61,794 nucleotides of DNA from an uncultured Clostridium sp. (GCA_947364715.1 CANAUI010000005.1:1-61794); one strand, 5' to 3'; numbered from the stretch's first letter, positions 27,207 through 44,962 are shown. Numbers and translations are program-made. Notes: generated from the sequence alone by a model not told the origin.

Positions 27207-27237
27207 AAAAACACATCCATATAGATGTGTTTTTTTT
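27207..27237. terminator. Bidirectional rho-independent terminator marking the low-coordinate (3') border of the accessory locus
   Basis: AAAAACACATC-catata-GATGTGTTTTTTTT. Confidence 0.6.
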
Positions 27238-30407: not shown

Positions 30408-31205
30408 TTATCTTTCATCTTGTGGTAGTTCATCTTCTTGCAATATGTGTTCTTCTGTAAGAGTCATATGCATTTTAATTTCTCCACCTATCAAATCATC
30501 TAAACATTCTGGGTCATCTCCCTCTACCCAAACTACAACTGTCCATTTATCAATATCACCTACTTTGAAGTTTTCTGTTAATTCTAACATAACAGTATCT
30601 TCATCTTTAAATGCTGTTGTTTCAGGCTCAGGTTTTCCTGTTTGTCTATTATTTTTTGCATAAACGATTTTTTCACCATTTTTAAAAACCATTACTCTAA
30701 TTGCTTCATCTACATTTTTTACAACATCATCTATTTTTATGGTTGTCCAATAATTTATAACATCTTGTCCCATATTTTCTGCATAAAATGTGTATGCTAT
30801 GTAATTTCTACCATTATGTGAGCCATTTCCTTCATTATCTATGTTTTCTGGTAACCAATTTATAGATATATCTGTAAAAAATTCAATGTCATCTGACCTT
30901 AAAAATGTTCTTGTATATTTATTTTCAGGCTCTTCATATATAACTAGCCCACTTTCTCTTCCATATTCACTATCTAGTGTTACTGTAAAATTTTCTCCTT
31001 TATAAAATATGGATAATACAATATATACATTAATTACAAGTAATATAATAAGTATTAAAAATATTTCAAAGGCAATTCGTCTTTTATTTTTTCTTTTTTC
31101 CTTTTTTGCTTTTTTTTCTAATTTTTGCCCTAATGTTGTTTCATTAATTTGTTCTTCTAGTGTTGGTGCATTTTGTAATTGTATATTTGTTTCTTCATTT
31201 GCCAT
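30408..31205 (-). CDS. TM-anchored paralog of the fibre subunit (TapA-like anchor/nucleator candidate)
   Basis: Lys-rich cytoplasmic N-terminus, one TM helix, no YAWF cleavage motif. C-terminal VVVWVEGDDPECLDDLIGGEIKM aligns with MYVWLEGQDVDCINYASLGGALTI of the 29089-30351 product. Confidence 0.5.
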   Translation of the reverse strand: MANEETNIQLQNAPTLEEQINETTLGQKLEKKAKKEKRKNKRRIAFEIFLILIILLVINVYIVLSIFYKGENFTVTLDSEYGRESGLVIYEEPENKYTRTFLRSDDIEFFTDISINWLPENIDNEGNGSHNGRNYIAYTFYAENMGQDVINYWTTIKIDDVVKNVDEAIRVMVFKNGEKIVYAKNNRQTGKPEPETTAFKDEDTVMLELTENFKVGDIDKWTVVVWVEGDDPECLDDLIGGEIKMHMTLTEEHILQEDELPQDER

Positions 31206-31346: not shown

Positions 31347-32045
31347 TTATGTATTTGACCTTATCATTGAGCTTGTTATTTTTACAGTTATTTCTATTGC
31401 TTTAGAAGGATTATTATTTTGATTTTGATAATATTCATAAGCATCTTTTCCAAATCTTGTATCTAATATGTCTTTTGCTAAATTTTCATCTTCTGTTCCA
31501 GTTCCTTGATAATCCCAACTAGATTTAAATTTGAAAGTTGCTCCAGACATTGGAGTTGTTGTATCATCTACATATTCTCCATCTAATCTAGTTCTATCAT
31601 AAGTATATTCTATTTTAAAAGGATATTTTGTATCATCTGCAAATATATTTACTGTATTCCCTTCAGTATGAATTATATTATTTTCTTCTAATTGGTCTAA
31701 TATTTCTCTACCAAAAATTTTTACAGAGGTTAACTCATAATTTATGCTTGTACTTGTTGTACTCATATTATATATGCGTACAATGTCTTCTCTATCAGGC
31801 ATTCCTGGATATAATTCATCTATTGTAAATGTAACATTTTCATCTAATACTTCTTTATCATCTACATAATATCTAATATCCCAAGGTGTTACATCAGCTT
31901 CTAATCCTTGAAGGTCAACTGGCGAATTTGCATTAAACCATGCATATGTATTTATTATTAATATTACAGAAAATGTCAAAATCAATAAAATTCTAAATGT
32001 CATACTTTGTTTTTTGACTCGTCTAAGTTCACGTAATATATTCAT
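31347..32045 (-). CDS. SipW-signal (TYAWFN) secreted TasA-like protein
   Basis: FRILLILTFSVILIINTYAWFNANSP then VTPWDIRYY. 232 aa. RBS GGAGG. Confidence 0.65.
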   Translation of the reverse strand: MNILRELRRVKKQSMTFRILLILTFSVILIINTYAWFNANSPVDLQGLEADVTPWDIRYYVDDKEVLDENVTFTIDELYPGMPDREDIVRIYNMSTTSTSINYELTSVKIFGREILDQLEENNIIHTEGNTVNIFADDTKYPFKIEYTYDRTRLDGEYVDDTTTPMSGATFKFKSSWDYQGTGTEDENLAKDILDTRFGKDAYEYYQNQNNNPSKAIEITVKITSSMIRSNT

Positions 32046-32105: not shown

Positions 32106-32822
32106 TTAAGTGTTATCCTCATCTTCTATATCTTCATCTATATATTCCTCAAATTCTTCTATGTCTTCTTCAACTTCTTCCATATCTTCATCTATTTCTT
32201 CGTCTATTTCTTCTTCATAATTTTCTTCATAAATATCTTCTTCTAATTCATCATATGTATTGGCAATTTTTCTTACTTTATGTTTTTTTGCTTTTTTTGG
32301 TGTATTAAATGCTACAAATACATTTAATACTAAAACAATAATTATAAAAAATACTGAATATATGTTAGTAGCTAAATCATATAATATTGTTAACAGAGCA
32401 GATTTATATTTTACAATACCATATATTTGTTCTTCTCTAATGTTAGGGTCTTCAAAACTGTCACTTTGTAAACCTTTTGCATGAAAAATTAAATCTCCAT
32501 TTTCTTCTTTATCAATTCCAATAACATTATGCATGATAACTCTGTCACCTAAATATACAATATCATCTCCAATTTTAATATCTTTAGGAGATATTTGTTT
32601 ACTTATAACAACTTCTCCAACTTGATATTCTGGCTCCATACTTCCTGTAATAACTCTAAAAATTCTATATCCACCTATTGATTTATTACTATTGCTTACT
32701 TTTTGTAAAACAATTACTAATGTCAAAAGTAAAGCTATTATTACAAGTACTTGATACAATATTACAAATATGACTTTTATTATTTTTTTTGGATTAATTT
32801 TTGGTCCATCATCTTTACTCAT
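32106..32822 (-). CDS. SipW-type (S26B) signal peptidase paralog 5, with long acidic C-terminal tail
   Basis: TGSMEPEY (Ser motif), IMHNVIG (His), AKGLQSDSFEDP in place of KGDNN. C-terminal TM then a ~55-aa D/E-rich tail. Confidence 0.75.
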   Translation of the reverse strand: MSKDDGPKINPKKIIKVIFVILYQVLVIIALLLTLVIVLQKVSNSNKSIGGYRIFRVITGSMEPEYQVGEVVISKQISPKDIKIGDDIVYLGDRVIMHNVIGIDKEENGDLIFHAKGLQSDSFEDPNIREEQIYGIVKYKSALLTILYDLATNIYSVFFIIIVLVLNVFVAFNTPKKAKKHKVRKIANTYDELEEDIYEENYEEEIDEEIDEDMEEVEEDIEEFEEYIDEDIEDEDNT

Positions 32823-32825
32823 AAT

Positions 32826-33446
32826 TTACTCCTCTACTTTATAATTATCTCTCAATTTCTTTATTTCATATTTTTTCCTTTTGATTTTTCTATTATTTAT
32901 CACATTTTCTCTAAAGTTAGCTAAAATACATATAATTACAATTAGAATAAATATATTTATAAATCCTGTTACATTTTGTATGTAATTAACTATTTTTCCT
33001 ATTTTAGGAATAACATATACCACTTTACCAAATATATCTTGTGTATTTACTGACTCTATATCTTCTACTTTATTATTATCCCCCTTAGTAATAAATTGTT
33101 TCTCATTTTTGTTTTTTACAATTTTTGAAATTCTATGTGATATTATTCTATCATCTTGCTTAAAAGTTATAATATCTCCTTTTTGTAATTCTTCATAATA
33201 ATAACTTTTTACAATTGCTAAATCATCTTTATAAAATGTTGGTTCCATACTTTCTGAAACTATATTAAACATATATATTCCAAAAATATGTGTTTTTTCT
33301 TCTATTGTTAACATTAAATTAACAATAAAAAGGAAGATTAAACTAATTAGTATAATAAATTTTATTATTTTTTTAGTTCTTTTTTTATTTTTTATTTTAT
33401 GAGAGATTTTTTTAACATCATATTCCAATTTTGTTCTCAGCTCCAT
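32826..33446 (-). CDS. sipW: SipW-type signal peptidase paralog 4 (canonical motifs)
   Basis: SESMEPTF, ISHRI, TKGDNNKVED. N- and C-terminal TM helices. Stop lies 3 nt before the next paralog's start. Confidence 0.85.
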   Translation of the reverse strand: MELRTKLEYDVKKISHKIKNKKRTKKIIKFIILISLIFLFIVNLMLTIEEKTHIFGIYMFNIVSESMEPTFYKDDLAIVKSYYYEELQKGDIITFKQDDRIISHRISKIVKNKNEKQFITKGDNNKVEDIESVNTQDIFGKVVYVIPKIGKIVNYIQNVTGFINIFILIVIICILANFRENVINNRKIKRKKYEIKKLRDNYKVEE

Positions 33447-33463
33447 AATTTTCTTTTGCAGTG

Positions 33464-35083
33464 TTATTTTTTTAACATTTCTTTTACACTTATAATATAT
33501 TCTAAATCTTTAACAGAAAATTTACTTTTTTGAATATTATTATAATTGTTTATAATTTTTACTTTTCTAATTAAATCTTCTATACTATCTTCTTCAAAAT
33601 TTTCTTTTGAAATTTGCATTCCTAATAGTTTATATTTATCTTTAATTATAATTGATAATTCTTTTGTATCACTTATTTTTACATGATTGATAACTGTGAA
33701 ATCAGAAAAATTAATAAATTTTCTAATTTTTTTAGCATTTTCTCCAATCTCTTTGTCTGTTATATCTTCATTATGTTTTATCATTGCTTTAGCCATATAT
33801 CCATAATAACTACTTGCAAATTTTAATACATCAAATAATGATGATGTTTCATCTAAGTGTTCAAGTATTTTTTGTTTTATAATTTCTTCATCTAATTCCA
33901 TATATTTTTTCTTTAAGTCTAAAACTAAATTATTTCTTTGTAAAATAGAAATATTATCTTTCTTTCCATTTGATTTTTTTCTATCAAAAAATAATTTATT
34001 TGGTTTATCAATTTTAGAATTTAATTTAAATATTTCTATTTGTAATTTTTTTATTTCTTCTTGTATTAACTCATATTGTGTTTTTTTGACTTTTTTATCT
34101 TTATTTGCTTGATTATTTTTTAATAATTCTTGTCTTATTTGTAATACTTCTTCTACTAAAAATTTATATTCCAAATATTTTGCATATTCTTCTAAATTAG
34201 TATTTAATTTATAAATGTTTTCATTTATTTCATTTTTTTCAATATCTGATAAATCTTCCACATCTTTATCTATTAATTCTATATAGATTTTTTTATAATT
34301 TTCTTCTTTATAATCATTTATATTTAAGCTACCTGTGTAAAATTTATCAAGAATATTTTTGTTGTCTATATCTTCTATTTTATTCTTTTTTTTGATTAAT
34401 TCTGCCTTTTTATCAGCAACACCTTCTACTGTTAAAGAAAGATTTCTTAAAATCTCTTGTGCTTTTTCATTATAAAATTTGTCTATTTGTTTTTCATATT
34501 TATCATAAATATATCTTATATTTACATATAAATGTGATACTACATCTGAACATGCCCAATATACTTTTTCAAACTGATTTTTTACAGCTTCTGAATTTAT
34601 ATCTCCATTATAGGCTTCTTTTAATAAGACTTCCATATATTTTTTTGAATATTCACTTATACAAAAATCTTCTGCTGTTAATTTTATTCCTACTTTTTCA
34701 AATTGTTTAATACTAAAAATCAGTTCTTTGTTTAATCTTTCTAAGTTACTTTTATAATAACCATTTACATTATATATAGTACGGTCTAACTCCATTTTTT
34801 CAAATGAAGAACGTATATCTGTATTTTTTTCTGCAATATTATATTGCAATATTTCTTGTTCTATTTGAGGAATCTCTACATTTTCTTCTACTGTTGTTAG
34901 TTCATTATATCTATTTTCTATTTCTTCTAATAATTTTTGATTTAAGTTTTCATATTTTTCAATCATGTCATTTATTGTTTTTGATAATGTTTTGATTGCC
35001 TTTATACCATTTCTTGGTAATACAGAAATAACTTCTTTATCTGTTGTTATTTGTTTTTCTATATTTTCTACTAACTCTTTCAC
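33464..35083 (-). CDS. Cytoplasmic coiled-coil protein of unknown function (539 aa)
   Basis: No signal or TM segment. K/E/L-rich heptad-like text throughout. The GTG start overlaps the stop of the upstream 45-aa ORF (TCGTGA). Confidence 0.5.
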   Translation of the reverse strand: MKELVENIEKQITTDKEVISVLPRNGIKAIKTLSKTINDMIEKYENLNQKLLEEIENRYNELTTVEENVEIPQIEQEILQYNIAEKNTDIRSSFEKMELDRTIYNVNGYYKSNLERLNKELIFSIKQFEKVGIKLTAEDFCISEYSKKYMEVLLKEAYNGDINSEAVKNQFEKVYWACSDVVSHLYVNIRYIYDKYEKQIDKFYNEKAQEILRNLSLTVEGVADKKAELIKKKNKIEDIDNKNILDKFYTGSLNINDYKEENYKKIYIELIDKDVEDLSDIEKNEINENIYKLNTNLEEYAKYLEYKFLVEEVLQIRQELLKNNQANKDKKVKKTQYELIQEEIKKLQIEIFKLNSKIDKPNKLFFDRKKSNGKKDNISILQRNNLVLDLKKKYMELDEEIIKQKILEHLDETSSLFDVLKFASSYYGYMAKAMIKHNEDITDKEIGENAKKIRKFINFSDFTVINHVKISDTKELSIIIKDKYKLLGMQISKENFEEDSIEDLIRKVKIINNYNNIQKSKFSVKDLEYIISVKEMLKK

Positions 35084-35217
35084 GAATTTTCCTCCTCTAG
35101 TTTTTTAACTGTTTCATATTCTCCATTTAAAAATTTTAAAAAGCTTTCTACTTGTTTTTTAGTATCTAACAATTCACCATTTTCTAAATCAGATGTTTTT
35201 ATATTTTTTAATTCCAC
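35080..35217 (-). CDS. 45-aa ORF translationally coupled to the coiled-coil protein gene
   Basis: RBS GAGGTGA 5 nt before the GTG at 35217. VELKNIKTSDLENGELLDTKKQVESFLKFLNGEYETVKKLEEENS. Its stop overlaps the next start. Confidence 0.35.
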   Translation of the reverse strand: MELKNIKTSDLENGELLDTKKQVESFLKFLNGEYETVKKLEEENS

Positions 35218-35243
35218 AATGCTCACCTCTTTTTTTATCTTTT

Positions 35244-35906
35244 TTAAGTTGTTGTTTCTTCTTCTGGTAGTATATATTGTGTAAATGTCATCATTGCTTT
35301 ATATTTTAAAGTAGTATGTAAATTATCTTCTTGTTGTTCTCCTCTAAATTGTGTATCAGCTTTATTATCCATACTATTTTCTTCACCATCATTCCATCTA
35401 AATAAGATTCTATATTCTCTTTTCTTTTCTCCTACACTATTTACTTCATCTATTGGATTAATAATACCTTTTATTTCTGAAGTTTGATTTGTTTCTATTA
35501 TAGTCTTTGTTCCATCAACTATATCCCATATCTCGTATCCATAAATCTCAAAATCTTCTAATGGTGTTTCATTTAATTGTTCTATAGAAAATTCATATTC
35601 AAAAGTCACATCTACATCTGTATAATCAATTAACATTTCGAAATATCCAGTTTGCCCTGGTACTAATATATCAGGATTTATATTATCACTTCTTGTAAAA
35701 ATTGGCTCTATAACTTCATTTAGTGTTTCTGTATCATGTATAACCATATCATTTACTTTAACTAACCATCTTTTGATATTAGTATTATATGTAGTATCAA
35801 CTTGTTCAAAATATCTTGCATAGGTTTTTTGTATAAAAAAGATAGTAATAATTAAAGAGATTAAACATAATATTTGAATAATTTTAATCTTATTTTTTTC
35901 TTTCAT
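35244..35906 (-). CDS. Secreted protein with class-2 SipW-like signal (TYARY)
   Basis: IIQILCLISLIITIFFIQKTYARYFEQ then RWLVKVND. C-terminal FRWNDGEENSMDN motif is shared with the other cargo proteins. Confidence 0.55.
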   Translation of the reverse strand: MKEKNKIKIIQILCLISLIITIFFIQKTYARYFEQVDTTYNTNIKRWLVKVNDMVIHDTETLNEVIEPIFTRSDNINPDILVPGQTGYFEMLIDYTDVDVTFEYEFSIEQLNETPLEDFEIYGYEIWDIVDGTKTIIETNQTSEIKGIINPIDEVNSVGEKKREYRILFRWNDGEENSMDNKADTQFRGEQQEDNLHTTLKYKAMMTFTQYILPEEETTT

Positions 35907-35928
35907 TAATTTTTCCTTTCTATCTTTT

Positions 35929-36612
35929 TCATTTTTTTCTTCTAAAAATTCTAAAGGCTACATATATTGTTAATGGCAATATTCCACAAAAATAGAAAAT
36001 ATATTTATTATTTAGTAACATACAAATTAATGATAAAATATACATTTTTGTTTGAACAACACCATTAATTTGCTCTGCTTTTATAACAGGGTCTTTTGTA
36101 GTCCCAATGGCAATTCCTTGTGTTTGAAAGCTTTTTTGACCATTTACTTCTTTTATATCTATCACTCTATGTGTAACAAGCTTTCCTTGCATTGCTCCTA
36201 CTTCTCCTTGATATGTTACATCATCACCAATTTGAATTTTATTTGGGTCTACTTCTTTAACAAGTATAACATCACCAATTTGATATTTAGGAATCATACT
36301 TCCTGTTTGTACTCTAAATACCCTAAATCCTAAAAATGATTCTTCATTATTTGTTACTTTTTGTACTACTATGATTATAGAAATAAATATGACAATACAT
36401 GTTAATATTTGGGTAAATATTTTCCATATAATTTTTAAACCTTTACTAGCAAATCTTCCTTTTCTTTTTTGTTCTGCATTTTTGGTATTTTTTTGTTGAT
36501 TATTTTTTATTTTGTCTTCACTTTTTTCAGTAACTTTTTTATTACTTTTTTCCTCTTTGTTTATAATATTGTTACTTTCTTTTTCTTCTCTTTTGTCATT
36601 GATTTTTTTCAT
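35929..36612 (-). CDS. SipW-type signal peptidase paralog 3, with Lys-rich N-terminal extension
   Basis: TGSMIPKY, VTHRVI, QGIAIGTTKDP. About 60-aa K/E/N-rich cytoplasmic N-terminus. The start codon abuts the stop of the upstream gene (36612/36613). Confidence 0.75.
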   Translation of the reverse strand: MKKINDKREEKESNNIINKEEKSNKKVTEKSEDKIKNNQQKNTKNAEQKRKGRFASKGLKIIWKIFTQILTCIVIFISIIIVVQKVTNNEESFLGFRVFRVQTGSMIPKYQIGDVILVKEVDPNKIQIGDDVTYQGEVGAMQGKLVTHRVIDIKEVNGQKSFQTQGIAIGTTKDPVIKAEQINGVVQTKMYILSLICMLLNNKYIFYFCGILPLTIYVAFRIFRRKK

Positions 36613-37734
36613 TTATTTTAACCTCACTTCTTTTGCTTGTATCATATATTTTTCAATTCTTTCTTTAAATCTATCTTCTATTGGTTTTAAAGAAATTATT
36701 TTTTTGGTTTTCATCATTAAAATCTTTTCTGAAATTAATTTATTAATGTCTTTTTCTGTCATATCAGGATTTAATTCTATAATCCTTTCAATCATGGCAT
36801 CTGTTAGTTCTTTTGCCATTTTATTATCTTCTAATGCTGATTTTGCTTTTCTTTTTAAGGTATTACTATCATCTGTTTTTTTGAAGATAGAATATAGTAA
36901 AAATATGTCTTCATCTACTAATTCTTTTATCATTCCTTTTTCTTCATATTGACTATTTTCATTTATTGTTTTGTCTTTTAATTCCATTTGCTCATTTAGA
37001 TAATTCCATAGTTTTACAGCATACTGAAAATTAACATTTTTTAACAAAACATTTGTCATTTTTAATGGTGATTTTACATATGTTGCTTTTTTTGCAACTA
37101 ATATTTGATAAACTTCAGTCTGTTTTAACATTTTTAATGAATTTGTTATGTTTGCTATTTTTTCTGATGTTTTATCTGCCTTTGTTATTCCTGTTATTCT
37201 TTCAGAATCATATTCCATTTTTATATTAATTTTTTCTCTACCTAATTTAATATCTGCTTGGTAATTTGCTCTTTGATGACTTTTTCCTTTGTATTCTTCA
37301 TCTTTTTCTTTTCCTCTTATATATATAAAGTCTTCTATTAATTTAATTAAAGTATATAAAAATCTATTTTCATAATTAAGAAAGGTTTCTTCTTTATATG
37401 CATTTAAAATCTTTTTTGGAATTACTTCTCCAGTTTGTTGATTATACTTATCCACAAGATTTACATTTTTTGATAAATGTTTTACACTTTCTACTGTTAC
37501 TTTTTTTATTAATTCGATTTTTATAATTTCTTCTTCTGTTATAATATTTTTTATTTCTTTTGTTAATGCTTTTTCTAAATATGGAATGGTAAATTCAACC
37601 ATGTTTATCCATTCATCATTTTCTACAACATGACTTTTATCTACATCCATTATTAATTTTGAATCAATTTTATTAAGAAATTTTGTTGAATTTTCCTTTT
37701 CCATATTTGCAAATCTTACAATATTTAAGTCCAT
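36613..37734 (-). CDS. Cytoplasmic protein of unknown function, partner of the McrB-like NTPase
   Basis: RBS GGAGGAG before the ATG at 37734 (the track start at 37755 is a TTG inside the repeat). 373 aa, no TM. Contains YENRFLYTLIKLIEDF. No PD-(D/E)xK motif recognised. Confidence 0.5.
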   Translation of the reverse strand: MDLNIVRFANMEKENSTKFLNKIDSKLIMDVDKSHVVENDEWINMVEFTIPYLEKALTKEIKNIITEEEIIKIELIKKVTVESVKHLSKNVNLVDKYNQQTGEVIPKKILNAYKEETFLNYENRFLYTLIKLIEDFIYIRGKEKDEEYKGKSHQRANYQADIKLGREKINIKMEYDSERITGITKADKTSEKIANITNSLKMLKQTEVYQILVAKKATYVKSPLKMTNVLLKNVNFQYAVKLWNYLNEQMELKDKTINENSQYEEKGMIKELVDEDIFLLYSIFKKTDDSNTLKRKAKSALEDNKMAKELTDAMIERIIELNPDMTEKDINKLISEKILMMKTKKIISLKPIEDRFKERIEKYMIQAKEVRLK

Positions 37735-37745
37735 TTTCTCCTCCG

Positions 37746-37853
37746 AAGTTGCCAAAAGGGACGTGTTTATTTGGCAACTTTTATAAATTTTTAAAATTTA
37801 CCTTATATCATTTTACAGAAGTTGCCAAATAGACACGTCCCTTTTGGCAACTT
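37746..37853. repeat. 35-bp inverted repeat pair flanking a 38-bp AT-rich spacer
   Basis: 37746-37780 AAGTTGCCAAAAGGGACGTGTTTATTTGGCAACTT versus the reverse complement of 37819-37853: 34/35 identical. Each arm is itself palindromic at its ends (GTTGCCAAA...TTTGGCAAC). Confidence 0.85.
37802..37828 (-). promoter_or_regulatory. Candidate extended -10 promoter inside the inverted-repeat cassette, facing the downstream genes
   Basis: Minus-strand TTGGCA (37823-37828), 15 nt, TGaTATAAG (37802-37810). Confidence 0.35.
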
Positions 37854-37915
37854 TGGCGACTTTGGCAACGCTGGCGACTCTGGCGACTTTTGGCAACCTT
37901 GACAACCTTGGCAAC
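37844..37915. repeat. Eight tandem 9-bp units YTGRCRAC (TTGGCAAC/TTGGCGAC/CTGGCGAC/TTGACAAC)
   Basis: Unit starts at 37844, 37853, 37862, 37871, 37880, 37890, 37899 and 37908 (spacing 9,9,9,9,10,9,9). Locally much more GC-rich than the surroundings. Lies between the NTPase stop (37933) and the IR cassette. Confidence 0.85.
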
Positions 37916-37932
37916 TTTTGGAAATTTATCAA

Positions 37933-39486
37933 TTAAGACATCTTTTTAAGTCTTAATAAAAATTCTATACATTCACTCATTTTGCCTTTTCCAAAATTTT
38001 TATCTAAGAAATCAATATATCCATCAATTTCATCTCTAATTAATGTTAAGTTTAATCCTTCAAATTTTCTTAATACTTTTTTTGCCATGAAATAATCTAC
38101 TGCTTCTGTTTCGTCTCCTCCACATGCTACATATACTGGCACAAATTTTCTCATATGTTTTACAATACGGTTACCAAATGCAACTCTAAAATGTTTGATT
38201 GTATAATCATCCATATCTTCTATCTTTTTCAGAGTTGATGGTGATATTGCATAATCTGTCATTGCTTTTTCAAATAGTCCATTTAAATATGAATAATTTA
38301 CATCAAGAGCATCTACATCGTCTGGTTCAAATGCTATACCTTTTTCATTAATATCTATAGGCATTGCTCTATCATATACCTTATCTGTTACCATAAATGT
38401 TGAGTCATCATTATTAATTGTTCCTATATACCATGCATTAGGTGGAATTTGTAGTTTTCCTTTTATTAATTTTTTTGGGTCAGTTGGCCATGAACTTTGT
38501 ACTATTTCAATTTTCCAATCTTTTGTACTGTGCATTTCTAGAATAGATAACATTTCTGCAAAATAATATTCCACACGTGCTAAGTTCATTTCATCAAGTA
38601 TTACTGTATATATTTCGTCTGTATATCCTGATTCATATAAATATGCTAAAAAGTCTGTTTCATTAAACTTTTTGGTAAATTCATTTAAATATCCAAAGAT
38701 ATCTGTTCTATCTCTCCAAGAGGGTTGTACAGATGCAACACATGATGGATGTTTTACAAAGTTACCCCATGCTAGTGATATAGATGTTTTACCAGTACCA
38801 GAAATACCTTGTAAAATAACAAGTTTTGTTGAGGCAATTGCTGATACAAATAGTCTAATCATTTTTTCACTATAATATAATCTTAATTTGCTTGCAGCAA
38901 AATGTCTAAACATATAACAGAATTCTGGTAATGTAAAATTATTACGATAATCTTTTTGTTTATATTTTGCAAATTCTTCGTCTAACATTGTTAATTTAGA
39001 GAATCTACTTTGACTATTTGGGTCAATTTGTTCTTCATCATTAGATTCTGCTTGTGTAGCCCCCATTCCAGCTCTCTCTAGTCCTGTACTAATTCCATTT
39101 GGATTTACACCTAATTCTGGTGTTTTCATAGATAATAATTTTAATTTTTCATCTACTAATTCTTCTACTTGTCCATTTAATGTATCAATTTGTTTTAATA
39201 ATTCTTCTTGATTAATAATCTTTTTTCTCCATTTTATATGTCTTTTTAAGAAAAATAAAATTATGCCAGCAATTCCACCAATAATAATAAACATACATAT
39301 AATTGCTATTCCTGTTAATAACCATTCTGATACATTAAAATCATTTGCATAATGTTTAATAATTCCCCAATACTCTGGTATATTAAATATATTTACAATC
39401 CCATTCCATAATCCACCAAATATTTCTTTAATTCCAGAAAAAAACTGGTTTAAAAATTCAAATAAAAATCTTCCATATGTTTCCAT
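37933..39486 (-). CDS. Membrane-tethered McrB/COG1401-family AAA+ NTPase
   Basis: One TM helix (LLTGIAIICMFIIIGGIAGIILFFL) and a coiled coil (EELLKQIDTLNGQVEELVDEKLKLL). Walker A GISGTGKTS, Walker B/signature ILDEMNLARVEYYFAEMLSILE, GTINNDDSTFMVTDKVYDRA. Confidence 0.8.
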   Translation of the reverse strand: METYGRFLFEFLNQFFSGIKEIFGGLWNGIVNIFNIPEYWGIIKHYANDFNVSEWLLTGIAIICMFIIIGGIAGIILFFLKRHIKWRKKIINQEELLKQIDTLNGQVEELVDEKLKLLSMKTPELGVNPNGISTGLERAGMGATQAESNDEEQIDPNSQSRFSKLTMLDEEFAKYKQKDYRNNFTLPEFCYMFRHFAASKLRLYYSEKMIRLFVSAIASTKLVILQGISGTGKTSISLAWGNFVKHPSCVASVQPSWRDRTDIFGYLNEFTKKFNETDFLAYLYESGYTDEIYTVILDEMNLARVEYYFAEMLSILEMHSTKDWKIEIVQSSWPTDPKKLIKGKLQIPPNAWYIGTINNDDSTFMVTDKVYDRAMPIDINEKGIAFEPDDVDALDVNYSYLNGLFEKAMTDYAISPSTLKKIEDMDDYTIKHFRVAFGNRIVKHMRKFVPVYVACGGDETEAVDYFMAKKVLRKFEGLNLTLIRDEIDGYIDFLDKNFGKGKMSECIEFLLRLKKMS

Positions 39487-39601
39487 GTTTTATTTCTCCT
39501 GTTTCTTTATATTGTTTTTTCCTATTGTCTTTGATTTATTTTTTGCTATTTATCTTATGTTTTTTTATTACACTACATTTTTTGTTTTAAGTGCTTTATT
39601 T

Positions 39602-40648
39602 TTATATGAATAGCACATTATTGAACATTTCTTTATGAGTTTTTATTTCTCTACACAATGCCAATTTTTGAGGTACAATTACTATTTTAAACATTTTTAA
39701 TTTTTCTACATCTTCTATACTTTTTACCATATTATCTAATGTAATTGTAAAATTGTATCCTTTTTTTATGTATTCCAATACTATTTTTTGATTGTGAATA
39801 TAATCAGAATATAAAATATTTAAATTAATTTTATCTTGTAATGCTTGATTTGCAAGAATAGATAAAATACTATCTAATTTTTGTTTCTTTTTTAATAAAG
39901 TACTTGCAAATTCTGCAATATATGTATCTACAAAATTCCCATTTATAATGTCTGAAATAACTACCAAACTTAGCAATATATATTCTACTTTTAACTTGTC
40001 TTCTGCTATAATTCCTTCGTGATATACTTTTTCTATGGCTGTTTGACTATATTGCATTGGCATTTTTACCTTTTGTTTCAAAGTAGCAAAATAAATTTCA
40101 TCATTATTTTTGCTATTTTCAAATTCTAATACAAATTCATCTGTATCAAATTTATCTAAAAATATTTCTTTTTCAAGCATGTCATGTTTTATATCTTCAT
40201 ATAGTTTTTTTTCTACACTTTGTGAAATATCTATTTTAAATAGTTTTTTTGCTGTTTCTACCATTTTAGCAATAATTTCTTTTATATTATCAATTGTTTT
40301 AAAGTTTTCTACATTTCTAACATTGTCAAAAAACAAAATATATGAAAATAATTCTTTTAAATTATGAATTTTGTTTAAATTGTTTCTCTTCTCGTCTAAA
40401 GTCTCTGCCTCTTCTTCACATTTTTTCATTAAAATATCTTCTTTATATTCTAGTTCTTCTAATATTCTTAAATAAAATGCTCTGGCAGGTGTATCTGTAT
40501 TTTGAATATTATAATATCTTGCATTAATATATGTTTTTAAATATTCATCTACTAATTCTTCATCATATTCTTTTACTAATAATGTCTTTATATATTTTTT
40601 TATTTTCTTTTTTGTAAATGTTATATATGTATCCATTAAATTATTCAT
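39602..40648 (-). CDS. Cytoplasmic protein of unknown function (348 aa)
   Basis: No TM or signal segment, helical K/E-rich text. No motif recognised. Confidence 0.45.
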   Translation of the reverse strand: MNNLMDTYITFTKKKIKKYIKTLLVKEYDEELVDEYLKTYINARYYNIQNTDTPARAFYLRILEELEYKEDILMKKCEEEAETLDEKRNNLNKIHNLKELFSYILFFDNVRNVENFKTIDNIKEIIAKMVETAKKLFKIDISQSVEKKLYEDIKHDMLEKEIFLDKFDTDEFVLEFENSKNNDEIYFATLKQKVKMPMQYSQTAIEKVYHEGIIAEDKLKVEYILLSLVVISDIINGNFVDTYIAEFASTLLKKKQKLDSILSILANQALQDKINLNILYSDYIHNQKIVLEYIKKGYNFTITLDNMVKSIEDVEKLKMFKIVIVPQKLALCREIKTHKEMFNNVLFI

Positions 40649-40732
40649 TTATTATATCATCCCTTTCTCTATGCACAAATCAAATTGCAAAAGAATTAAA
40701 TCTTAGCAAAATAATGAGGTCAACACAAGGTA

Positions 40733-41305
40733 TTATATAATTTGTTCTGCATTAATATCTAATTTTATATATTCAATTAAATCAGAATATTCTGCATTTG
40801 TATCATTTTCTTTTGGAAATGTTACTTTAATAACATAATTATCTGTCAAATCTTCTCCTTGTATCATTTGTGATGGTTCTATTATAATTTCTTTGTAATG
40901 TGTACCATCTTCATCTGTAATTATATCTTGTTGTGTGGTTAAAATTTCACCATTTTTTTCTATTATATATTCTAATGGTAAATTTGTTGTTGTTGTTATT
41001 TTTAAATTATATTCTAAATCTGTTTCTGCTCTTTTTCTTATTGTTCCTTCTTCATTTGCTTCAAAATTTGATACTGAAAAAGAATAGTCAAATGAATTAT
41101 TTGATGGATATACATCTTCTATAATTATACTTGCTGTTTGAAAATCATCTTTAAACATCCAAAAAGCAATATCTACGTCTTTTTGTGACATTGCCATTGT
41201 TTCATATCTTGATAATGTATTTTTTATAAAAATAATAGCTATTATAATAATTGCTATTAAAAAAAGTATTATAATACTTTTTTTTAATTTTTTCTTATCC
41301 AACAT
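40733..41305 (-). CDS. Secreted protein with class-2 SipW-like signal (TLSRY)
   Basis: RBS GGTGAG before the ATG at 41305. KKSIIILFLIAIIIIAIIFIKNTLSRYET then DIAFWMF. Overlaps the 3' end of SipW paralog 2. Confidence 0.55.
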   Translation of the reverse strand: MLDKKKLKKSIIILFLIAIIIIAIIFIKNTLSRYETMAMSQKDVDIAFWMFKDDFQTASIIIEDVYPSNNSFDYSFSVSNFEANEEGTIRKRAETDLEYNLKITTTTNLPLEYIIEKNGEILTTQQDIITDEDGTHYKEIIIEPSQMIQGEDLTDNYVIKVTFPKENDTNAEYSDLIEYIKLDINAEQII

Positions 41306-41819
41306 CTTTTTTCTCACCTATTTTTTCTTTATATGAAATCAATAATATAAATAATATAATTGTTATTACTATTGATATAATAACATATTTATCTGAAAAT
41401 ACTTTTTTCCAGACTTCTACATTATTAAAAATGTATACAGATTTACCTATAACTTGACTTTTTTCTATTGGCTCATCCTGAATATTATTATAATCACCTT
41501 TTGTAATAATCATATCTCCATCTATTTTTTCTATTCTATGTGTAATTAGTACATTATCTTGCTTATATGTTATAATATCTTTTTCCTTTATTTCATCACC
41601 TATTTTAATTATTATAATATCACCTTTTTTTATTGTTGGTGACATACTACCAGTTTCTGTACTAAGTATAGAAAATCCAAATATATTTATATATTCTTTA
41701 TTTTGTATGTTTAATTGTATAAATCCCCATATTGCAAGAATAGCAATGACACTTAATACAAAAATTATTAGATTTATAATTACTTTTTTAATAATTTTTA
41801 ATATTTTATCCGTTTTCAT
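41295..41819 (-). CDS. sipW: SipW-type signal peptidase paralog 2 (canonical motifs)
   Basis: TGSMSPTI, ITHRI, TKGDYNNIQDEP. N- and C-terminal TM helices. Overlaps both neighbours. Confidence 0.85.
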   Translation of the reverse strand: MKTDKILKIIKKVIINLIIFVLSVIAILAIWGFIQLNIQNKEYINIFGFSILSTETGSMSPTIKKGDIIIIKIGDEIKEKDIITYKQDNVLITHRIEKIDGDMIITKGDYNNIQDEPIEKSQVIGKSVYIFNNVEVWKKVFSDKYVIISIVITIILFILLISYKEKIGEKKDVG

Positions 41820-42450
41820 CGCTTATCACTTCTCCTGTATATTGTTTTAAATTAATTTCTAATGGTATAGATATTTTTGCATTTTCTATTTTTCCTAATT
41901 CTGAATCAGTTTCATTATTTTCTTCTAAATTTTCCCACTCAAAATATAACCTTACATAATTTATATATTTATCATTTATCTTTTCTAGTGGAATTATTGC
42001 TTTATGTTCATTACTTTCATTATTTGTATATATATTATCATTTAAAACTTGTTCTGTTTCTTCATTTTTTTTAAAATAATTTTCTACATTTACTAATTTA
42101 AAATTAGCAGTTGTTACCATGTCTAATTTTATGTTAAGTGTGTATAAAACTGATACATCTGTATTTGTTGGGTCTATAGCAATTTCAAAATATGCTTGTG
42201 ACCCTGGTGCTATTTTTTGACTTTTAACATGTTCAGAATTTATATATATAAGGTTGTCCTCTGTCATGTTAAAAGTCAAATTTTCGTCACCTGAAGATAG
42301 GTCTGATTCATTTACTTTTATAGACCATACTCCTAATAAATTTCTATATTCCCCTTCTAATTTGTCTTTATATAAAGCATACATATTAGTTATTCGGAAT
42401 ATAGTTATTATTAGCATTATTAATACTAGAATTCTTAATAATTTCTTCAT
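41806..42450 (-). CDS. Secreted protein with class-2 SipW-like signal (MYALY)
   Basis: LRILVLIMLIITIFRITNMYALYKDK then GVWSIKVNESD. C-terminal YFEWENLEENNETD motif. Confidence 0.55.
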   Translation of the reverse strand: MKKLLRILVLIMLIITIFRITNMYALYKDKLEGEYRNLLGVWSIKVNESDLSSGDENLTFNMTEDNLIYINSEHVKSQKIAPGSQAYFEIAIDPTNTDVSVLYTLNIKLDMVTTANFKLVNVENYFKKNEETEQVLNDNIYTNNESNEHKAIIPLEKINDKYINYVRLYFEWENLEENNETDSELGKIENAKISIPLEINLKQYTGEVISDENG

Positions 42451-42453
42451 TTA

Positions 42454-43461
42454 CTATTCCTCTTTTGATGATTTTGTAGCTCTTGGTTTACGAGTACTTG
42501 TGGCTGTAGCTGTTGATGTTTTTCTTGTTGTTCCTGTTTTTGTTGCTGTACTAGCTTTTGTAGTTGTTCCTGTTCTTTTTGCTGTACTAGTTTTTGTAGT
42601 TGCTCCTGTTCCTTTTGCTGTACTAGTTTTTGCAGTTGCTCCTGTTCTTTTTGTTGTACTAGTTTTTGCAGTTGCTCCTGTTCCTTTTGCTGTACTAGTT
42701 TTTGTAGTTGTTCCTGTTGTTTTTGTTGTACCAGTTTTTGTAGTTGTTCCTGTTTTTCTTGCTGTGCTAGTTTTTGCAGTTGTTCTTGTTTTAGTATTTG
42801 TTCTTGTAGCTGTATTTGTTTTTGGACTTGTTTTTCTAGTTTTTACAACTGGCTCTTCATATTCTTCCTCGTCATATTCCTCTTCTTCATATTCTTCTTC
42901 ATCATAATATTCTTCTGATTCAATTTCTATTGCATTTTTCTTCTTTTGCTTGTTAAGATATTTAATTTCCATAACTAATTCAAATACTTCTTGTAAGAAT
43001 AGTAATAATGATACAACTACTATACAGAATAAATATCCCCATTTAGATTCTAATATATTTAATATATATCCCCAACCTTCTATAACAATTGTATCTTCAA
43101 CTTTTCCTATAAAATAGTCACTTGCATAACTTTCTTCATCATCTACAATATATACATTATGTCTTCCTTGTTGAGTTTTTGCTTGTAATGTTGTATTTAT
43201 AACTTCATATTCTGAACTATTCAGTACTTTATACATGAATACTTCATCTCCAATTTGTACATTTTTGTCATTTGTTTCTTTTATTAATAATATAGACCCT
43301 TGTTTATATTCAGGCTCTAATGAATCATCTGTAACTATATATATTGTGTATTCTCCAATTACACTATTGTTATAATCATTATATGATAATAATAAAACTG
43401 TAACTGTAATAGCAATAATCGCATATATTACAAATAATATAGTTCCTAGTACTTTTTTCAT
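42454..43461 (-). CDS. Divergent SipW-like paralog 1 with long acidic plus Thr/Lys-repeat C-terminal tail
   Basis: N-terminal TM, DDSLEPEY (Ser motif with M to L), GRHNVY in place of THR(I/V), no KGDNN. Second TM, then EEYYDEEEYEEEEYDEEEYEE and ~130 aa of (T/A)KTSTAKxTGxT repeats. Start taken at the second ATG (43461, RBS GGAAGAG). Confidence 0.55.
   Translation of the reverse strand: MKKVLGTILFVIYAIIAITVTVLLLSYNDYNNSVIGEYTIYIVTDDSLEPEYKQGSILLIKETNDKNVQIGDEVFMYKVLNSSEYEVINTTLQAKTQQGRHNVYIVDDEESYASDYFIGKVEDTIVIEGWGYILNILESKWGYLFCIVVVSLLLFLQEVFELVMEIKYLNKQKKKNAIEIESEEYYDEEEYEEEEYDEEEYEEPVVKTRKTSPKTNTATRTNTKTRTTAKTSTARKTGTTTKTGTTKTTGTTTKTSTAKGTGATAKTSTTKRTGATAKTSTAKGTGATTKTSTAKRTGTTTKASTATKTGTTRKTSTATATSTRKPRATKSSKEE
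42500..42800. repeat. In-frame 36-bp tandem repeats (at least 7 units) encoding the Thr/Lys-rich tail
   Basis: Plus-strand units such as gttgctcctgttccttttgctgtactagtttttgca recur head-to-tail with few substitutions. Confidence 0.8.
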
Positions 43462-43521
43462 TTTTTCTCTTCCTTGCATTTTTTATTTAGGTTTTTATAT
43501 GGTTTTGCCTATAAACCTTTT

Positions 43522-43962
43522 TTAATTTTTTACTTTTTGTAATTGTATTGATTGTGTACCTGTCAAATTCCCATTTAATATAACACTAATATCATATTGC
43601 TCACCAACTCCTAAACTTTGTATCCAAGTTGGCATTTGTCCTAATGTCTTTCCTTTAGCATCTAATAAAATTGCATTTAAACTTTCGTTTTCTACAATAT
43701 TTGTTCTTGTATTTACAATAGACATTGACACCATAGTTTTATCTTGTTCTTCTAAATATTCCATATAGATATCTTTTACTTCCATACCACTATATGTTGT
43801 ATCTGGTAATGGTATTGTTGTTTGTTGTTCTCCTACTGTTTCATCTTTATCTTTGTTTCCTTTTTTTACAATAATAATCACAATAGATACTATAATAATA
43901 ATTGCTATAAGGGCTATTAATAATATTCTCATCATTTTTTTACCTTTTCTTGCTCTTCTCAT
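43522..43962 (-). CDS. Small TM-anchored extracytoplasmic protein (146 aa)
   Basis: RBS AAGGAGG. Basic N-terminus, one TM helix, then a ~100-aa beta-rich domain. Confidence 0.5.
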   Translation of the reverse strand: MRRARKGKKMMRILLIALIAIIIIVSIVIIIVKKGNKDKDETVGEQQTTIPLPDTTYSGMEVKDIYMEYLEEQDKTMVSMSIVNTRTNIVENESLNAILLDAKGKTLGQMPTWIQSLGVGEQYDISVILNGNLTGTQSIQLQKVKN

Positions 43963-44051
43963 ATTATCCTCCTTTTCTACATTTTTTTATAATTTTCTAC
44001 TTTATTTTATATCATAACTTTTTTTCAAAGTCTATACTTTTAGCGAAAAAT

Positions 44052-44086
44052 AAAAAAATAGTATGTTTGTTAATAAAACATACTAT
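44052..44086 (-). terminator. Rho-independent terminator after the frameshifted gene
   Basis: Minus-strand ATAGTATGTTT-tattaac-AAACATACTAT followed by TTTTTT. Confidence 0.55.
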
Positions 44087-44091
44087 TTTTA

Positions 44092-44962
44092 TCATTCATC
44101 ACTTACTATAATAACAGATGTTGTATCACCTGAAGGATATGTATAATCCTGAGACATGTCTACTTTATAAAATTTAATTTTTTTAGCAGACTCCTTATTC
44201 ATAGAAAAAACAAACTTTTTCACATATCCATTTGAATCAAGTTCTTCACTACCATCTACTCTATTAATATATGCCTCATCATTTAAGTCTATTCTAACCA
44301 CATTAGTATCAAATCTTAATGAAACATTTCCTCCTGTTTCATGAGTATTAACCATATTTAACATCAAATAATTTCTATTAGCAACATCTTCTATGTTGTA
44401 ACTATTTGCTAAAATTTGTTGTATTCTTAACGAAATCTCACAAGAAATTTCTTTTTTGTATGGTTCTTGTGTACTAGCCTTAATTTTTATAGTAACAATA
44501 TCATTTTGTTCAATTTGTGTTTTAGGTTTTACTACAATCTTAATTCTGCTAACATTATCTGGTGTATCAGCATTCCTAGAATAGATAATTCCTGTTGTTT
44601 CTGTTGGTCCATCTTCTTCATTAATTCCGTAATGTTATTTTATCTGTATCTGGTGTTTCACACGAAAGTTGATATTCTAAGTCATATTCTAATCTTAATA
44701 ATGTATTTTGATAACTATATAAATCAAAATTGATTTCATAATTATCAACACCACCCCAATTTTCATATTGATATGTTGCATTATCAAGAGTTAACAAATC
44801 ACTTGTAAAATAGAATGCTTTTGAAGTAAAATATGCTTCTCTTGCTTGATAATATACATATCTTCCAAATACAGAACATGTTATAACTAGTACTATTGCC
44901 AAAAATAGTATTATAATATTTCTTATTTTATTAAACTTTCTGATTCTTGCATGTTTTTTCAT
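44092..44962 (-). pseudogene. Secreted protein with class-2 signal (FGRY), split by a frameshift near 44621-44635
   Basis: ORF 44621-44962 ends ...DTDKITLRN*. The adjacent frame is open from CAT TAC GGA ATT AAT GAA... (INEEDGPTETTG...) straight into ORF 44092-44367. Joined product would be about 290 aa. Confidence 0.6.

Follow-up and report, generated by a model that had tools for sequence, protein, structure and literature searches.

The window analysed here is a stretch of 61,794 nucleotides from an uncultured Clostridium sp. (GCA_947364715.1 CANAUI010000005.1:1-61794) with a GC content of 25%. Its neighbouring germination genes, typA, cmk and rnr mark a spore-forming member of the Clostridia. 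It carries a tightly packed minus-strand array of ~20 genes, from 61746 down to 27236, in which five genes of the endoplasmic reticulum (ER)-type signal peptidase family, here called P1 to P5, are interspersed among genes for secreted proteins, a nucleoside triphosphatase (NTPase) and cytoplasmic partners. The order is a 5541-amino-acid (aa) protein, g113, g91, g146, P1, g214, P2, g194, g348, the NTPase, a DUF2357 protein, P3, g220, cc539, P4, P5, g232, g265, g420 and g559. A search with the NTPase retrieved 46 related loci, species-level gut metagenome-assembled genomes (MAGs) of uncultured Clostridia that include one closed 1.55-Mb chromosome and 'Clostridium sp. CAG:780'. All five open reading frames (ORFs) were found where the first-pass annotation had placed them, on the minus strand:

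42454..43479, minus strand: P1, predicted catalytically dead SipW-like protein, 341 aa (TIGR02228 E 1e-9, below the cutoff)
42518..42790, minus strand: 36-bp tandem repeat encoding the 12-aa Thr/Lys (T/K) repeats of the P1 tail (Tandem Repeats Finder)
41295..41819, minus strand: P2, predicted canonical ER-type signal peptidase with short tails, 174 aa (TIGR02228 70.8 bits)
35929..36612, minus strand: P3, predicted variant peptidase with a Lys-rich cytoplasmic N-terminus, 227 aa (TIGR02228 71.3 bits)
32826..33446, minus strand: P4, predicted canonical ER-type signal peptidase with basic N- and C-terminal tails, 206 aa (TIGR02228 106.7 bits)
32106..32822, minus strand: P5, predicted variant peptidase, a P3-type duplicate with an acidic C-terminal tail, 238 aa (TIGR02228 58.8 bits)

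The five proteins match TIGR02228, the model for signal peptidase I of the archaeal and ER type, with E values of 1e-9 (P1), 1e-19 (P2), 8e-20 (P3), 1e-30 (P4) and 6e-16 (P5). P1 alone, at 38.1 bits, falls below the curated cutoff of 51.85 bits. Judged by these profile scores, the five matches are far beyond chance, and P4 and P5 can be aligned with human SEC11A/C (P4 against SEC11C, E 2.6e-11). P1 does not match TIGR02227, the P-type signal peptidase model, and matches ER-type models only. A match of g146 to a peptidase profile was discarded, a transmembrane helix alone being responsible for it. By hydropathy all five have the SipW-type topology, with a short N-terminus inside, a first transmembrane helix, an ectodomain, a second transmembrane helix and the C-terminus inside, so that the N-terminal extension of P3 and the C-terminal tails of P1 and P5 are placed in the cytoplasm. 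The closest pairs within the window are P3 and P5 (40% identity, E 3e-38) and P2 and P4 (39%, E 2e-15), while the nearest paralog of P1 is P5 (E 1e-9).

Catalytic residues were numbered on human SEC11A, the Ser being S56 in box B, the His H96 in box D and the distal Asp D122 in box E. These three residues form its triad; the Asp of KGDNN is D116, a buried residue in a salt bridge with R97, and the D116 mutant is destabilised yet retains activity, whereas mutation of D122 abolishes activity (bioRxiv 10.1101/2020.11.11.378711). The catalytic Ser is present in all five window proteins and is invariant among the orthologs of P2 to P5. In P2 (GSMSP, THRI and KGDYN) and P4 (ESMEP, SHRI and KGDNN) the Ser, the His, the Arg that follows it, the GD Asp and the distal Asp are all invariant in orthologs (n=43 for P2); by these residues both are assigned to the canonical ER-type Ser-His-Asp peptidases, in agreement with the first-pass annotation. 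P3 (QGIAIGTTKDP) and P5 (AKGLQSDSFEDP) also have the Ser, the His and the distal Asp, which are invariant in 38 P3 orthologs (where the Asp lies in 'EDP') and in 33 P5 orthologs. The GD Asp is replaced by Ile in 38/38 P3 orthologs ('KGIA-N..EDP') and by Leu in most P5 orthologs, the divergent ones having Ile, Thr or Val. The position of the Arg is taken by R, Q, S or E in P3 orthologs and by N, S, E, R or K in P5 orthologs, the window copy of P5 reading HN instead of HR. The structural pair corresponding to D116 and R97 thus exists in P2 and P4 only, not in P3 or P5. The first-pass annotation had quoted the motifs of all five paralogs correctly and had rightly left P3 and P5 their Ser and His, but it took the whole third block to be lost, where only the first Asp, that of GD, is gone and the distal Asp is kept. 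It had also grouped both with P1 as divergent copies, but they should not be classed with P1 as degenerate, their SEC11A-type triad being complete and invariant in all orthologs. Because both partners of the salt bridge are lost while the triad is kept, P3 and P5 look like a functional sub-type rather than products of decay. On the alignments they form a conserved sub-type that keeps the triad and lacks the buried Asp-Arg salt bridge, and they are probably active variants.

P1 belongs to a third class. In an alignment with SEC11A/C and its orthologs, Tyr or Glu stands at the position of the catalytic His and a deletion has removed the box E region together with the distal Asp, the GD Asp being partly kept among orthologs. 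The catalytic His occurs in 0/40 P1 orthologs and a conserved His is likewise missing from 120 distant representatives, and P1 is for this reason not classed as a peptidase. Its Ser (DDSLEP) is kept in near relatives, except for Gly or Thr in two of them, and is Asp, Glu or Lys in far-clade orthologs. The earlier suspicion of a pseudo-peptidase, raised from DSLEP and GRHNVY, has become clearer with these counts, but the reading of GRHNVY as the His block was rejected: the sole His of P1 falls in the strand that directly precedes box E, and P1 orthologs have N, S, R, T or E in its place. A first MAFFT alignment had put 'FMYKV' under the His block, and with SEC11A/C and further orthologs included it shifted upstream by one strand; under both alignments P1 has no catalytic His.

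The P1 core was then compared with 1.84 billion protein cluster representatives (50%-identity clusters), which returned 621 related clusters at E≤1e-3, of which 137 reach E≤1e-10. Of the best 150 matches 124 are full-length; 115 of these have neither the Ser nor the His, nine have the Ser only and essentially none has the His. A profile of 14 distant members retrieved only SEC11A/C from the PDB, with non-catalytic residues at both sites, and the members checked carry no Pfam domain and are all named 'hypothetical protein'. The conserved positions of the family lie in the β-scaffold, in the transmembrane helices (Y19, T27, L30, L31, N34 and P156) and in a juxtamembrane cytoplasmic motif, E-(I/V)-K-Y-G, a pattern that points to interactions within or at the membrane, not to catalysis. 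Judged by its residues, P1 is a pseudo-peptidase and belongs to a large family of SipW-fold proteins from which the catalytic residues have gone.

The best functional precedent for such a protein is SipA (LepA) of Streptococcus pyogenes, a protein of signal-peptidase fold without catalytic residues, whose gene lies in a pilus operon and without which the pilus does not polymerise (PMC4049620). By this analogy P1 would be a counterpart of SipA, not a member of its family: SipA is P-type (S26A, Ser-Lys) and works with sortases, whereas P1 is ER-type (S26B), with two transmembrane helices and a long cytoplasmic tail, and no sortase match was found among the operon proteins scanned. SEC11A and SEC11C share with the window paralogs the fold, the Ser-His-Asp triad and the occurrence of catalytic subunits as paralogs, and the D116-R97 salt bridge of SEC11A explains the split between P2/P4 and P3/P5. 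Unlike the window paralogs, the SEC11 proteins have one transmembrane helix and no long tails, and the accessory subunits of the eukaryotic signal peptidase complex are non-homologous, whereas here the accessory member would be a dead paralog.

The tails are as the first-pass annotation had described them, that of P5 measuring 66 aa. The P1 tail consists of an acidic EEY block (net -15) and a T/K block of 126 aa (net +26), the DNA of which is the 36-bp tandem repeat in 7.6 copies with 89% match. The N-terminus of P3 is Lys-rich over 60 aa (net +10), and the C-terminal tail of P5 is 48% D/E (net -25). The basic tails of P4, ~25-30 aa each and with a net charge of +6 to +9, are constant in length and charge across orthologs. 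In the other paralogs the lengths range in orthologs from 14 to 181 aa (P1 C-terminus), 8 to 117 aa (P3 N-terminus) and 19 to 194 aa (P5 C-terminus); composition and end motifs are conserved, sequence and length are not. P1 tails open with the acidic block and close with ..(R/K)xTKS(S/A)KEE(E), P3 extensions open with M-x-x-K-x-D-(E/K)-R-E-E, and the acidic tail of P5 is present in nearly all orthologs, with a net charge of -8 to -40 in most. A tail of ≥50 aa is found in 39 of 110 distant P1-like representatives, many of these tails opening with an acidic block. The long P1 tail is missing from the distant, far-clade orthologs and is thus not essential to the core role of P1. The tails of P1, P3 and P5 lengthen in parallel within the clade of the window (L001-L028), with Spearman coefficients, uncorrected for phylogeny, of 0.74 for the P1 C-terminal tail against the P3 N-terminus and 0.54 for a second tail pair. 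In the closest relatives (L001-L008) P5 continues for an extra 40-130 aa past the acidic block, a segment that is not present in the window P5, with 'EKMRQYYEKT' conserved in most of them and an N/T/K-rich end.

The remaining genes of the operon, with signal ends given as predicted (the arrow marks the cleavage site; classes A and B are defined below), are as follows:

45121..61746, minus strand: the operon's first gene, for a giant surface protein of 5541 aa (DUF285/BspA-type repeats)
43522..44962, minus strand: g146 (transmembrane-anchored), g113 and g91
41806..42450, minus strand: g214, class A secreted β-sandwich protein, signal end M-Y-A↓L-Y (AlphaFold2 and Foldseek)
40733..41317, minus strand: g194, class A secreted protein, signal end T-L-S↓R-Y
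39602..40648, minus strand: g348, cytoplasmic protein without a fold or family match, found in P2-type fusions in other lineages
37933..39486, minus strand: McrB-like AAA+ NTPase with an N-terminal transmembrane helix and a coiled-coil segment, 517 aa
36613..37755, minus strand: DUF2357 protein resembling the N-terminal part of McrC, 380 aa (Pfam DUF2357 E 7.6e-7)
35244..35906, minus strand: g220, class A secreted protein, signal end T-Y-A↓R-Y, a paralog of g214 (30% identity, E 6e-16)
33464..35083, minus strand: cc539, cytoplasmic helical (coiled-coil-like) accessory protein, absent from some lineages
31347..32045, minus strand: g232, class B secreted protein, signal end T-Y-A↓W-F
30408..31205, minus strand: g265, membrane-anchored or secreted, WVEGDDPEC motif, part of the system core
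29089..30351, minus strand: g420, class B secreted protein, signal S-T-Y-A↓W-F, WLEGQDVDC motif, candidate major subunit
27236..28915, minus strand: g559, class B signal T-F-A↓W-F, g232-like N-terminal domain and FGE-sulfatase-like C-terminus

The NTPase is 56-94% identical across the 46 loci. A profile of 22 orthologs matches the E. coli McrB structures in the PDB (E 6e-5) over a region spanning Walker A, Walker B and the signature region. The signature, an invariant I-N-N-D-D-S, aligns without gaps to N-T-A-D of McrB and fits NxD followed by D as well as NxxD. A transmembrane helix at residues ~57-80 is followed by a heptad-like helical segment at ~88-125; hmmscan of the NTPase gave no match to an FtsB/DivIC model. 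No nuclease domain was detected by the Pfam scan in the DUF2357 protein, and likewise in the distant loci. The true start of its gene, judged from the starts of orthologs, is probably the ATG at 37734. The g348 profile found no match in the PDB or Pfam; the EAL model was touched by one of 22 members at E 0.023, a match that we do not trust.

In two separate lineages, at loci L048 (10728-12662, 644 aa) and L051 (10635-12641, 668 aa), one gene encodes both a canonical P2-type peptidase and a g348-like domain, with a K/E-rich linker of 130-150 aa between them. In a third locus, L047, the P2-type peptidase and the g348 homolog are separate, both with long low-complexity extensions. Being Rosetta-stone fusions, the two fused proteins indicate that peptidase C-termini and the cytoplasmic g348 work in physical contact, and they lend support to a role of the tails as tethers. 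The first-pass annotation had suggested docking of the tails of the divergent copies, with the peptidase-independent role of the B. subtilis SipW C-terminal tail as a precedent, which is correct (PMC8767453). The fusions give this suggestion indirect support, although they involve other paralogs than those proposed. Tails recur in relatives and one of the five paralogs, P1, lacks catalytic residues, two of the points on which that annotation had let its proposal depend. Altogether, its observation stands with two corrections and its interpretation is partly supported.

About eight of the operon's products are secreted β-sandwich proteins. At the N-terminus of each, basic residues are followed by a hydrophobic helix with a conserved small-x-small site at its end. 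The signals end in T-Y-A↓(K/R/L)-Y, T-L-S↓R-Y or V-F-G↓R-Y in class A (g214, g220, g194 and g113) and in T-(Y/F)-A↓W-F in class B (g232, g420 and g559). The signal of TasA ends in T-W-A↓A-F, which the class B end T-Y-A↓W-F resembles. The best match of the g420 N-terminus is TIGR04088, the SipW-dependent-type signal peptide, at a sub-threshold 15.7 bits against a cutoff of 19 (E 0.012), and TIGR04088 did not match the other substrates. The substrate families have 487-1483 homologs, g420 the most with 1483, none of them named and, one exception aside, without a precomputed Pfam domain. The AlphaFold2 models (confidence, pLDDT, 74.6 for g214 and 79.9 for g420) are rich in β-strands, with a low-confidence stretch directly after the predicted cleavage site. 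In Foldseek the g214 model has weak matches to β-sandwiches of Gram-positive adhesins and pilins, CanA and TasA, with template-modelling (TM) scores of 0.3-0.47; the match to CanA has E 1.4e-3 (TM 0.40-0.45) and that to the TasA fibre 8aur E 5.6e-3 (TM 0.3). On these models a strand-exchange fibre is plausible. Profiles of g420, g232 and g214 searched against PDB sequences gave noise only.

Several of these genes have features of their own. The C-terminal region of g559 reaches 23.2 bits with FGE-sulfatase/SUMF1, the Pfam cutoff being 23.3, and its relatives in other clades, of ~205-260 aa, are without this part. Two long stretches of the 5541-aa ORF are internally duplicated, and both contain DUF285/BspA leucine-rich repeats; minimal relatives have a giant Laminin_G_3 protein upstream in place of this BspA-type giant. 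g113 and g91 (44092-44962) are two ORFs in the window and in ~15 near relatives, and a single gene of ~283-316 aa, class A-like with the signal end V-F-G↓R-Y, in the middle and far clades; the division may reflect a split that has been conserved, recoding, or a frameshift in common.

Gene order is conserved across 46 species-level genomes, and the operon occupies the same chromosomal position in dozens of species. The near and middle clades have an ortholog at each of the five peptidase positions. The far clade, in which the NTPase is ~62% identical, has four or five family members, only one of them of the P3/P5 type. In this clade (L030-L036, L040 and L046, at about 3700-4000) an extra family member adjoins the P4-type gene, with the motifs K-x-N-S-M, K-Y-H-R and T-K-A-D; the copy in L032 is without Ser and His. 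Five distant P1-like loci, one of them from a Bacilli MAG, share a core of P1, P2-type, NTPase, DUF2357 and P3-type genes with homologs of g232, g220, g420 and g265. Signal-peptidase-family genes number five in the window and three to five per complete related locus, and P1, P2-type and P3-type proteins co-occur with the NTPase and the McrC-like protein in every lineage examined. Since all five distant loci carry this trio, the gene content identifies P1, P2 and P3 as the ancestral set, with P4 and P5 as later duplicates.

The operon is very probably a CoCoPALM system. This name was introduced by Bell et al. (eLife 2024, PMC11090510) in one sentence, with the description deferred, for systems with a McrB-like GTPase, an NxD rather than NxxD signature, an FtsB-like transmembrane and coiled-coil segment at the N-terminus of the GTPase, a McrC homolog (DUF2357) that often has no nuclease, and an association with the signal peptidase family. 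Four of these five features are present here or compatible, NxD being ambiguous (NNDD) and FtsB homology undetected. Common to both are the McrB-like NTPase with N-terminal transmembrane helix and coiled coil, the nuclease-less DUF2357 partner, the signal-peptidase-family genes and the occurrence in Bacillota. A literature search returned no later CoCoPALM paper, and a search of the supplementary files of PMC11090510 found nothing on CoCoPALM. The paper itself makes no mention of peptidase classes, a dead member, tails, substrates or peptidase-g348 fusions, and relative to the literature searched three things are new: the division into canonical, salt-bridge-less and dead members, how large the dead family is, and the fusions of a peptidase with g348.

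Two other kinds of system are also close. The tapA-sipW-tasA operon of B. subtilis and sipW-bsaABC of C. perfringens likewise have an ER-type SipW gene beside secreted β-sandwich subunits, signal ends of T-(W/Y/F)-A before an aromatic residue, and a SipW whose cytoplasmic C-terminal tail has a second, peptidase-independent role. They have one peptidase and no NTPase, whereas here there are five members, including a dead one, and a McrB-like motor; compared with TasA and camelysin, the window substrates have no Pfam family match and a weak resemblance to the TasA fold. The archaeal TasA-like fibres, the bundling pili of Pyrobaculum and the Pyrodictium cannulae (CanA), consist of β-sandwich subunits joined by donor-strand exchange and are processed by ER-type peptidases. 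CanA is among the best, though weak (TM ~0.4), fold matches of g214, and the archaeal fibres assemble without a chaperone or NTPase.

Taken together, we read the five genes as the signal-peptidase-family module of a conserved operon for the assembly of a surface fibre of pilus-like kind, and give this reading a probability of roughly 0.55. The secreted subunits would insert into the membrane by their N-terminal helix, and the four triad-bearing peptidases would share out these substrates and cut them at the outer face, P2 and perhaps P4 taking class A and the P3/P5 type class B, as gene adjacency suggests. The subunits so released may then polymerise, donor-strand exchange of the kind found in TasA or CanA being one possible mode. 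P1 would act as a non-catalytic partner that holds signal peptides or subunits, or organises the peptidases through its transmembrane helices, in the manner of SipA. The oppositely charged, presumably disordered tails would serve as flexible tethers to a complex of g348, the McrB-like NTPase and the McrC-like protein, through which NTP hydrolysis inside could be coupled to processing and assembly outside.

Several observations count against this reading. The fold matches of g214 are weak, g420, the largest substrate, has no fold match in the PDB (Foldseek, none below E 0.08), the Pfam family Peptidase_M73/TasA is not matched by the substrates, and presence and absence across loci did not resolve which peptidase pairs with which substrate. 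To these must be added the resemblance of the NTPase to McrB and to the PADLOC candidate phage-defence model PDC-M26A (E 1e-36), the reported triad of SipW, and the recent 36-bp repeat together with the absence of the tail from distant P1 orthologs, which is what neutral slippage in a genome of 25% GC would be expected to leave. Each of the last three leads to a different account of the locus or of part of it.

The tails could be functionless: in a genome so rich in A and T, replication slippage would generate neutral low-complexity expansions, and disordered cytoplasmic ends would tolerate them. We consider this possible but doubtful. It would explain why the P1 T/K block is a repeat of 89% identity at the DNA level, why tail lengths vary so widely in P1, P3 and P5, why the P1 tail is essentially absent in the distant clade and why the residues are K, T, N and E, those of A/T-rich codons; the co-lengthening in one clade, too, is what a lineage-wide mutational bias would give. 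However, the end motifs of P1 and P3 persist while the spacers between them change, the charge pattern is kept in the membrane-adjacent acidic block of P1 and in most P5 tails, the basic tails of P4 do not vary in length or charge, and an equivalent linker carries a folded g348-like domain in two lineages. The SipW triad leads to the question of whether P3 and P5 are inactive as well, which would leave two enzymes and three pseudo-peptidases. The essential triad of B. subtilis SipW is given as S47/H87/D106 (PMC8767453). From its spacing (His+19) D106 would be the GD Asp, the residue that P3 and P5 lack in every ortholog, and for this reason their inactivity keeps some standing. We nevertheless think it unlikely: in human SEC11A/C the GD Asp is structural, its mutants are active and the distal Asp is the catalytic one. 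In the Methanococcus voltae enzyme the GD Asp behaves as in SEC11A/C. Moreover, Ser, His and distal Asp are invariant in ~70 P3 and P5 orthologs across distant clades, whereas in the dead P1 these positions drift.

That the locus is a McrBC-derived system of phage defence or conflict, with the peptidase-like proteins as membrane effectors or sensors, we regard as more unlikely still. The McrB-like NTPase with its defence-model match, a partner that carries DUF2357, the N-terminal domain of McrC, and the sister clade CoCoNuT, a predicted defence system, would all agree with it; but no nuclease domain was found, the position and gene order of the operon are the same in dozens of species, unlike those of a mobile defence island, and it is dominated by secreted β-sandwich proteins and the 5541-aa adhesin-like protein. 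The authors who defined the clade also read CoCoPALM as linked to pili (Bell et al. 2024). Least probable of all, and to our minds hardly credible, is that the five paralogs are redundant copies that raise signal-peptidase capacity for heavy secretion. They do have a common fold and topology and lie in one operon, yet they differ from one another in motif set, tail type and operon position, each combination being conserved in ≥46 genomes, one of the five is without the full catalytic residues, and the P1/P2/P3 trio is retained even in minimal versions of the system. Two familiar types of pilus were set aside on gene content. A type IV pilus-like system was rejected for want of a G↓F..E5 prepilin motif and of PilD and PilB, and a sortase pilus in that no sortase model matched among the scanned operon proteins and LPXTG was not seen in the ORF translations, for which no formal search was made.

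Scans of the window for promoters and terminators gave no excess over shuffled controls, save for one perfect promoter match, a TTGACA-17-TATAAT of sigma-70 type at 31283-31255 on the minus strand. It lies just upstream of g265 and g420, and by its sequence could drive strong internal transcription of the candidate major subunit genes. Between the NTPase and DUF2357 genes (37843-37921) the 9-bp unit TTTGGCAAC is repeated in tandem 8.3 times with a 28-bp super-period, and this array could be regulatory. No RNA family was found in the window by the Rfam scan, and Pfam and NCBIfam scans gave no match for most neighbour proteins. At the other end of the window, a sigma-E/K-like sigma factor ORF (1002-1769) seems to end abruptly inside region 4 ('..GISRSYVSERFYD') near a large serine recombinase gene on the minus strand (2382-3743); the arrangement at 1002-3743 resembles a skin-like element interrupting sigK.

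The system to which the locus belongs has been given a name but no description, and the peptidase-family genes of the locus divide into three conserved functional classes, as predicted from their residues. One of these reveals a whole family of SipW-like proteins, dead by the same criterion, that is un-named in databases among the members checked, and another, P3 and P5, is a natural experiment on which Asp of the ER-type signal peptidases is catalytic. Natural gene fusions tie a peptidase to the cytoplasmic part of the machine. We put forward, as a tentative proposal only, that the trio of P1, P2 and P3 with the membrane-anchored McrB-like NTPase and its McrC-like partner makes up a machine, of a class not described before, that assembles fibres in Gram-positive gut bacteria and is driven by NTP; cleavage of the signal peptide would act as a gate, the dead paralog would hold or hand over uncleaved subunits, and disordered charged tails or a g348 fusion would transmit the work of the motor across the membrane. 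If this is true, the machine would add a fifth pilus pathway to the chaperone-usher, type IV, sortase and type V ones. Together, the classes, the dead family and the fusions make it possible to test how an NTPase derived from a restriction enzyme can be coupled to the processing of signal peptides and the assembly of fibres. Uncultured Clostridia and Bacilli with small genomes, from the guts of humans and animals, commonly carry the system, and although almost every protein of the operon is labelled 'hypothetical', its product is probably a main surface or adhesion structure of these organisms.

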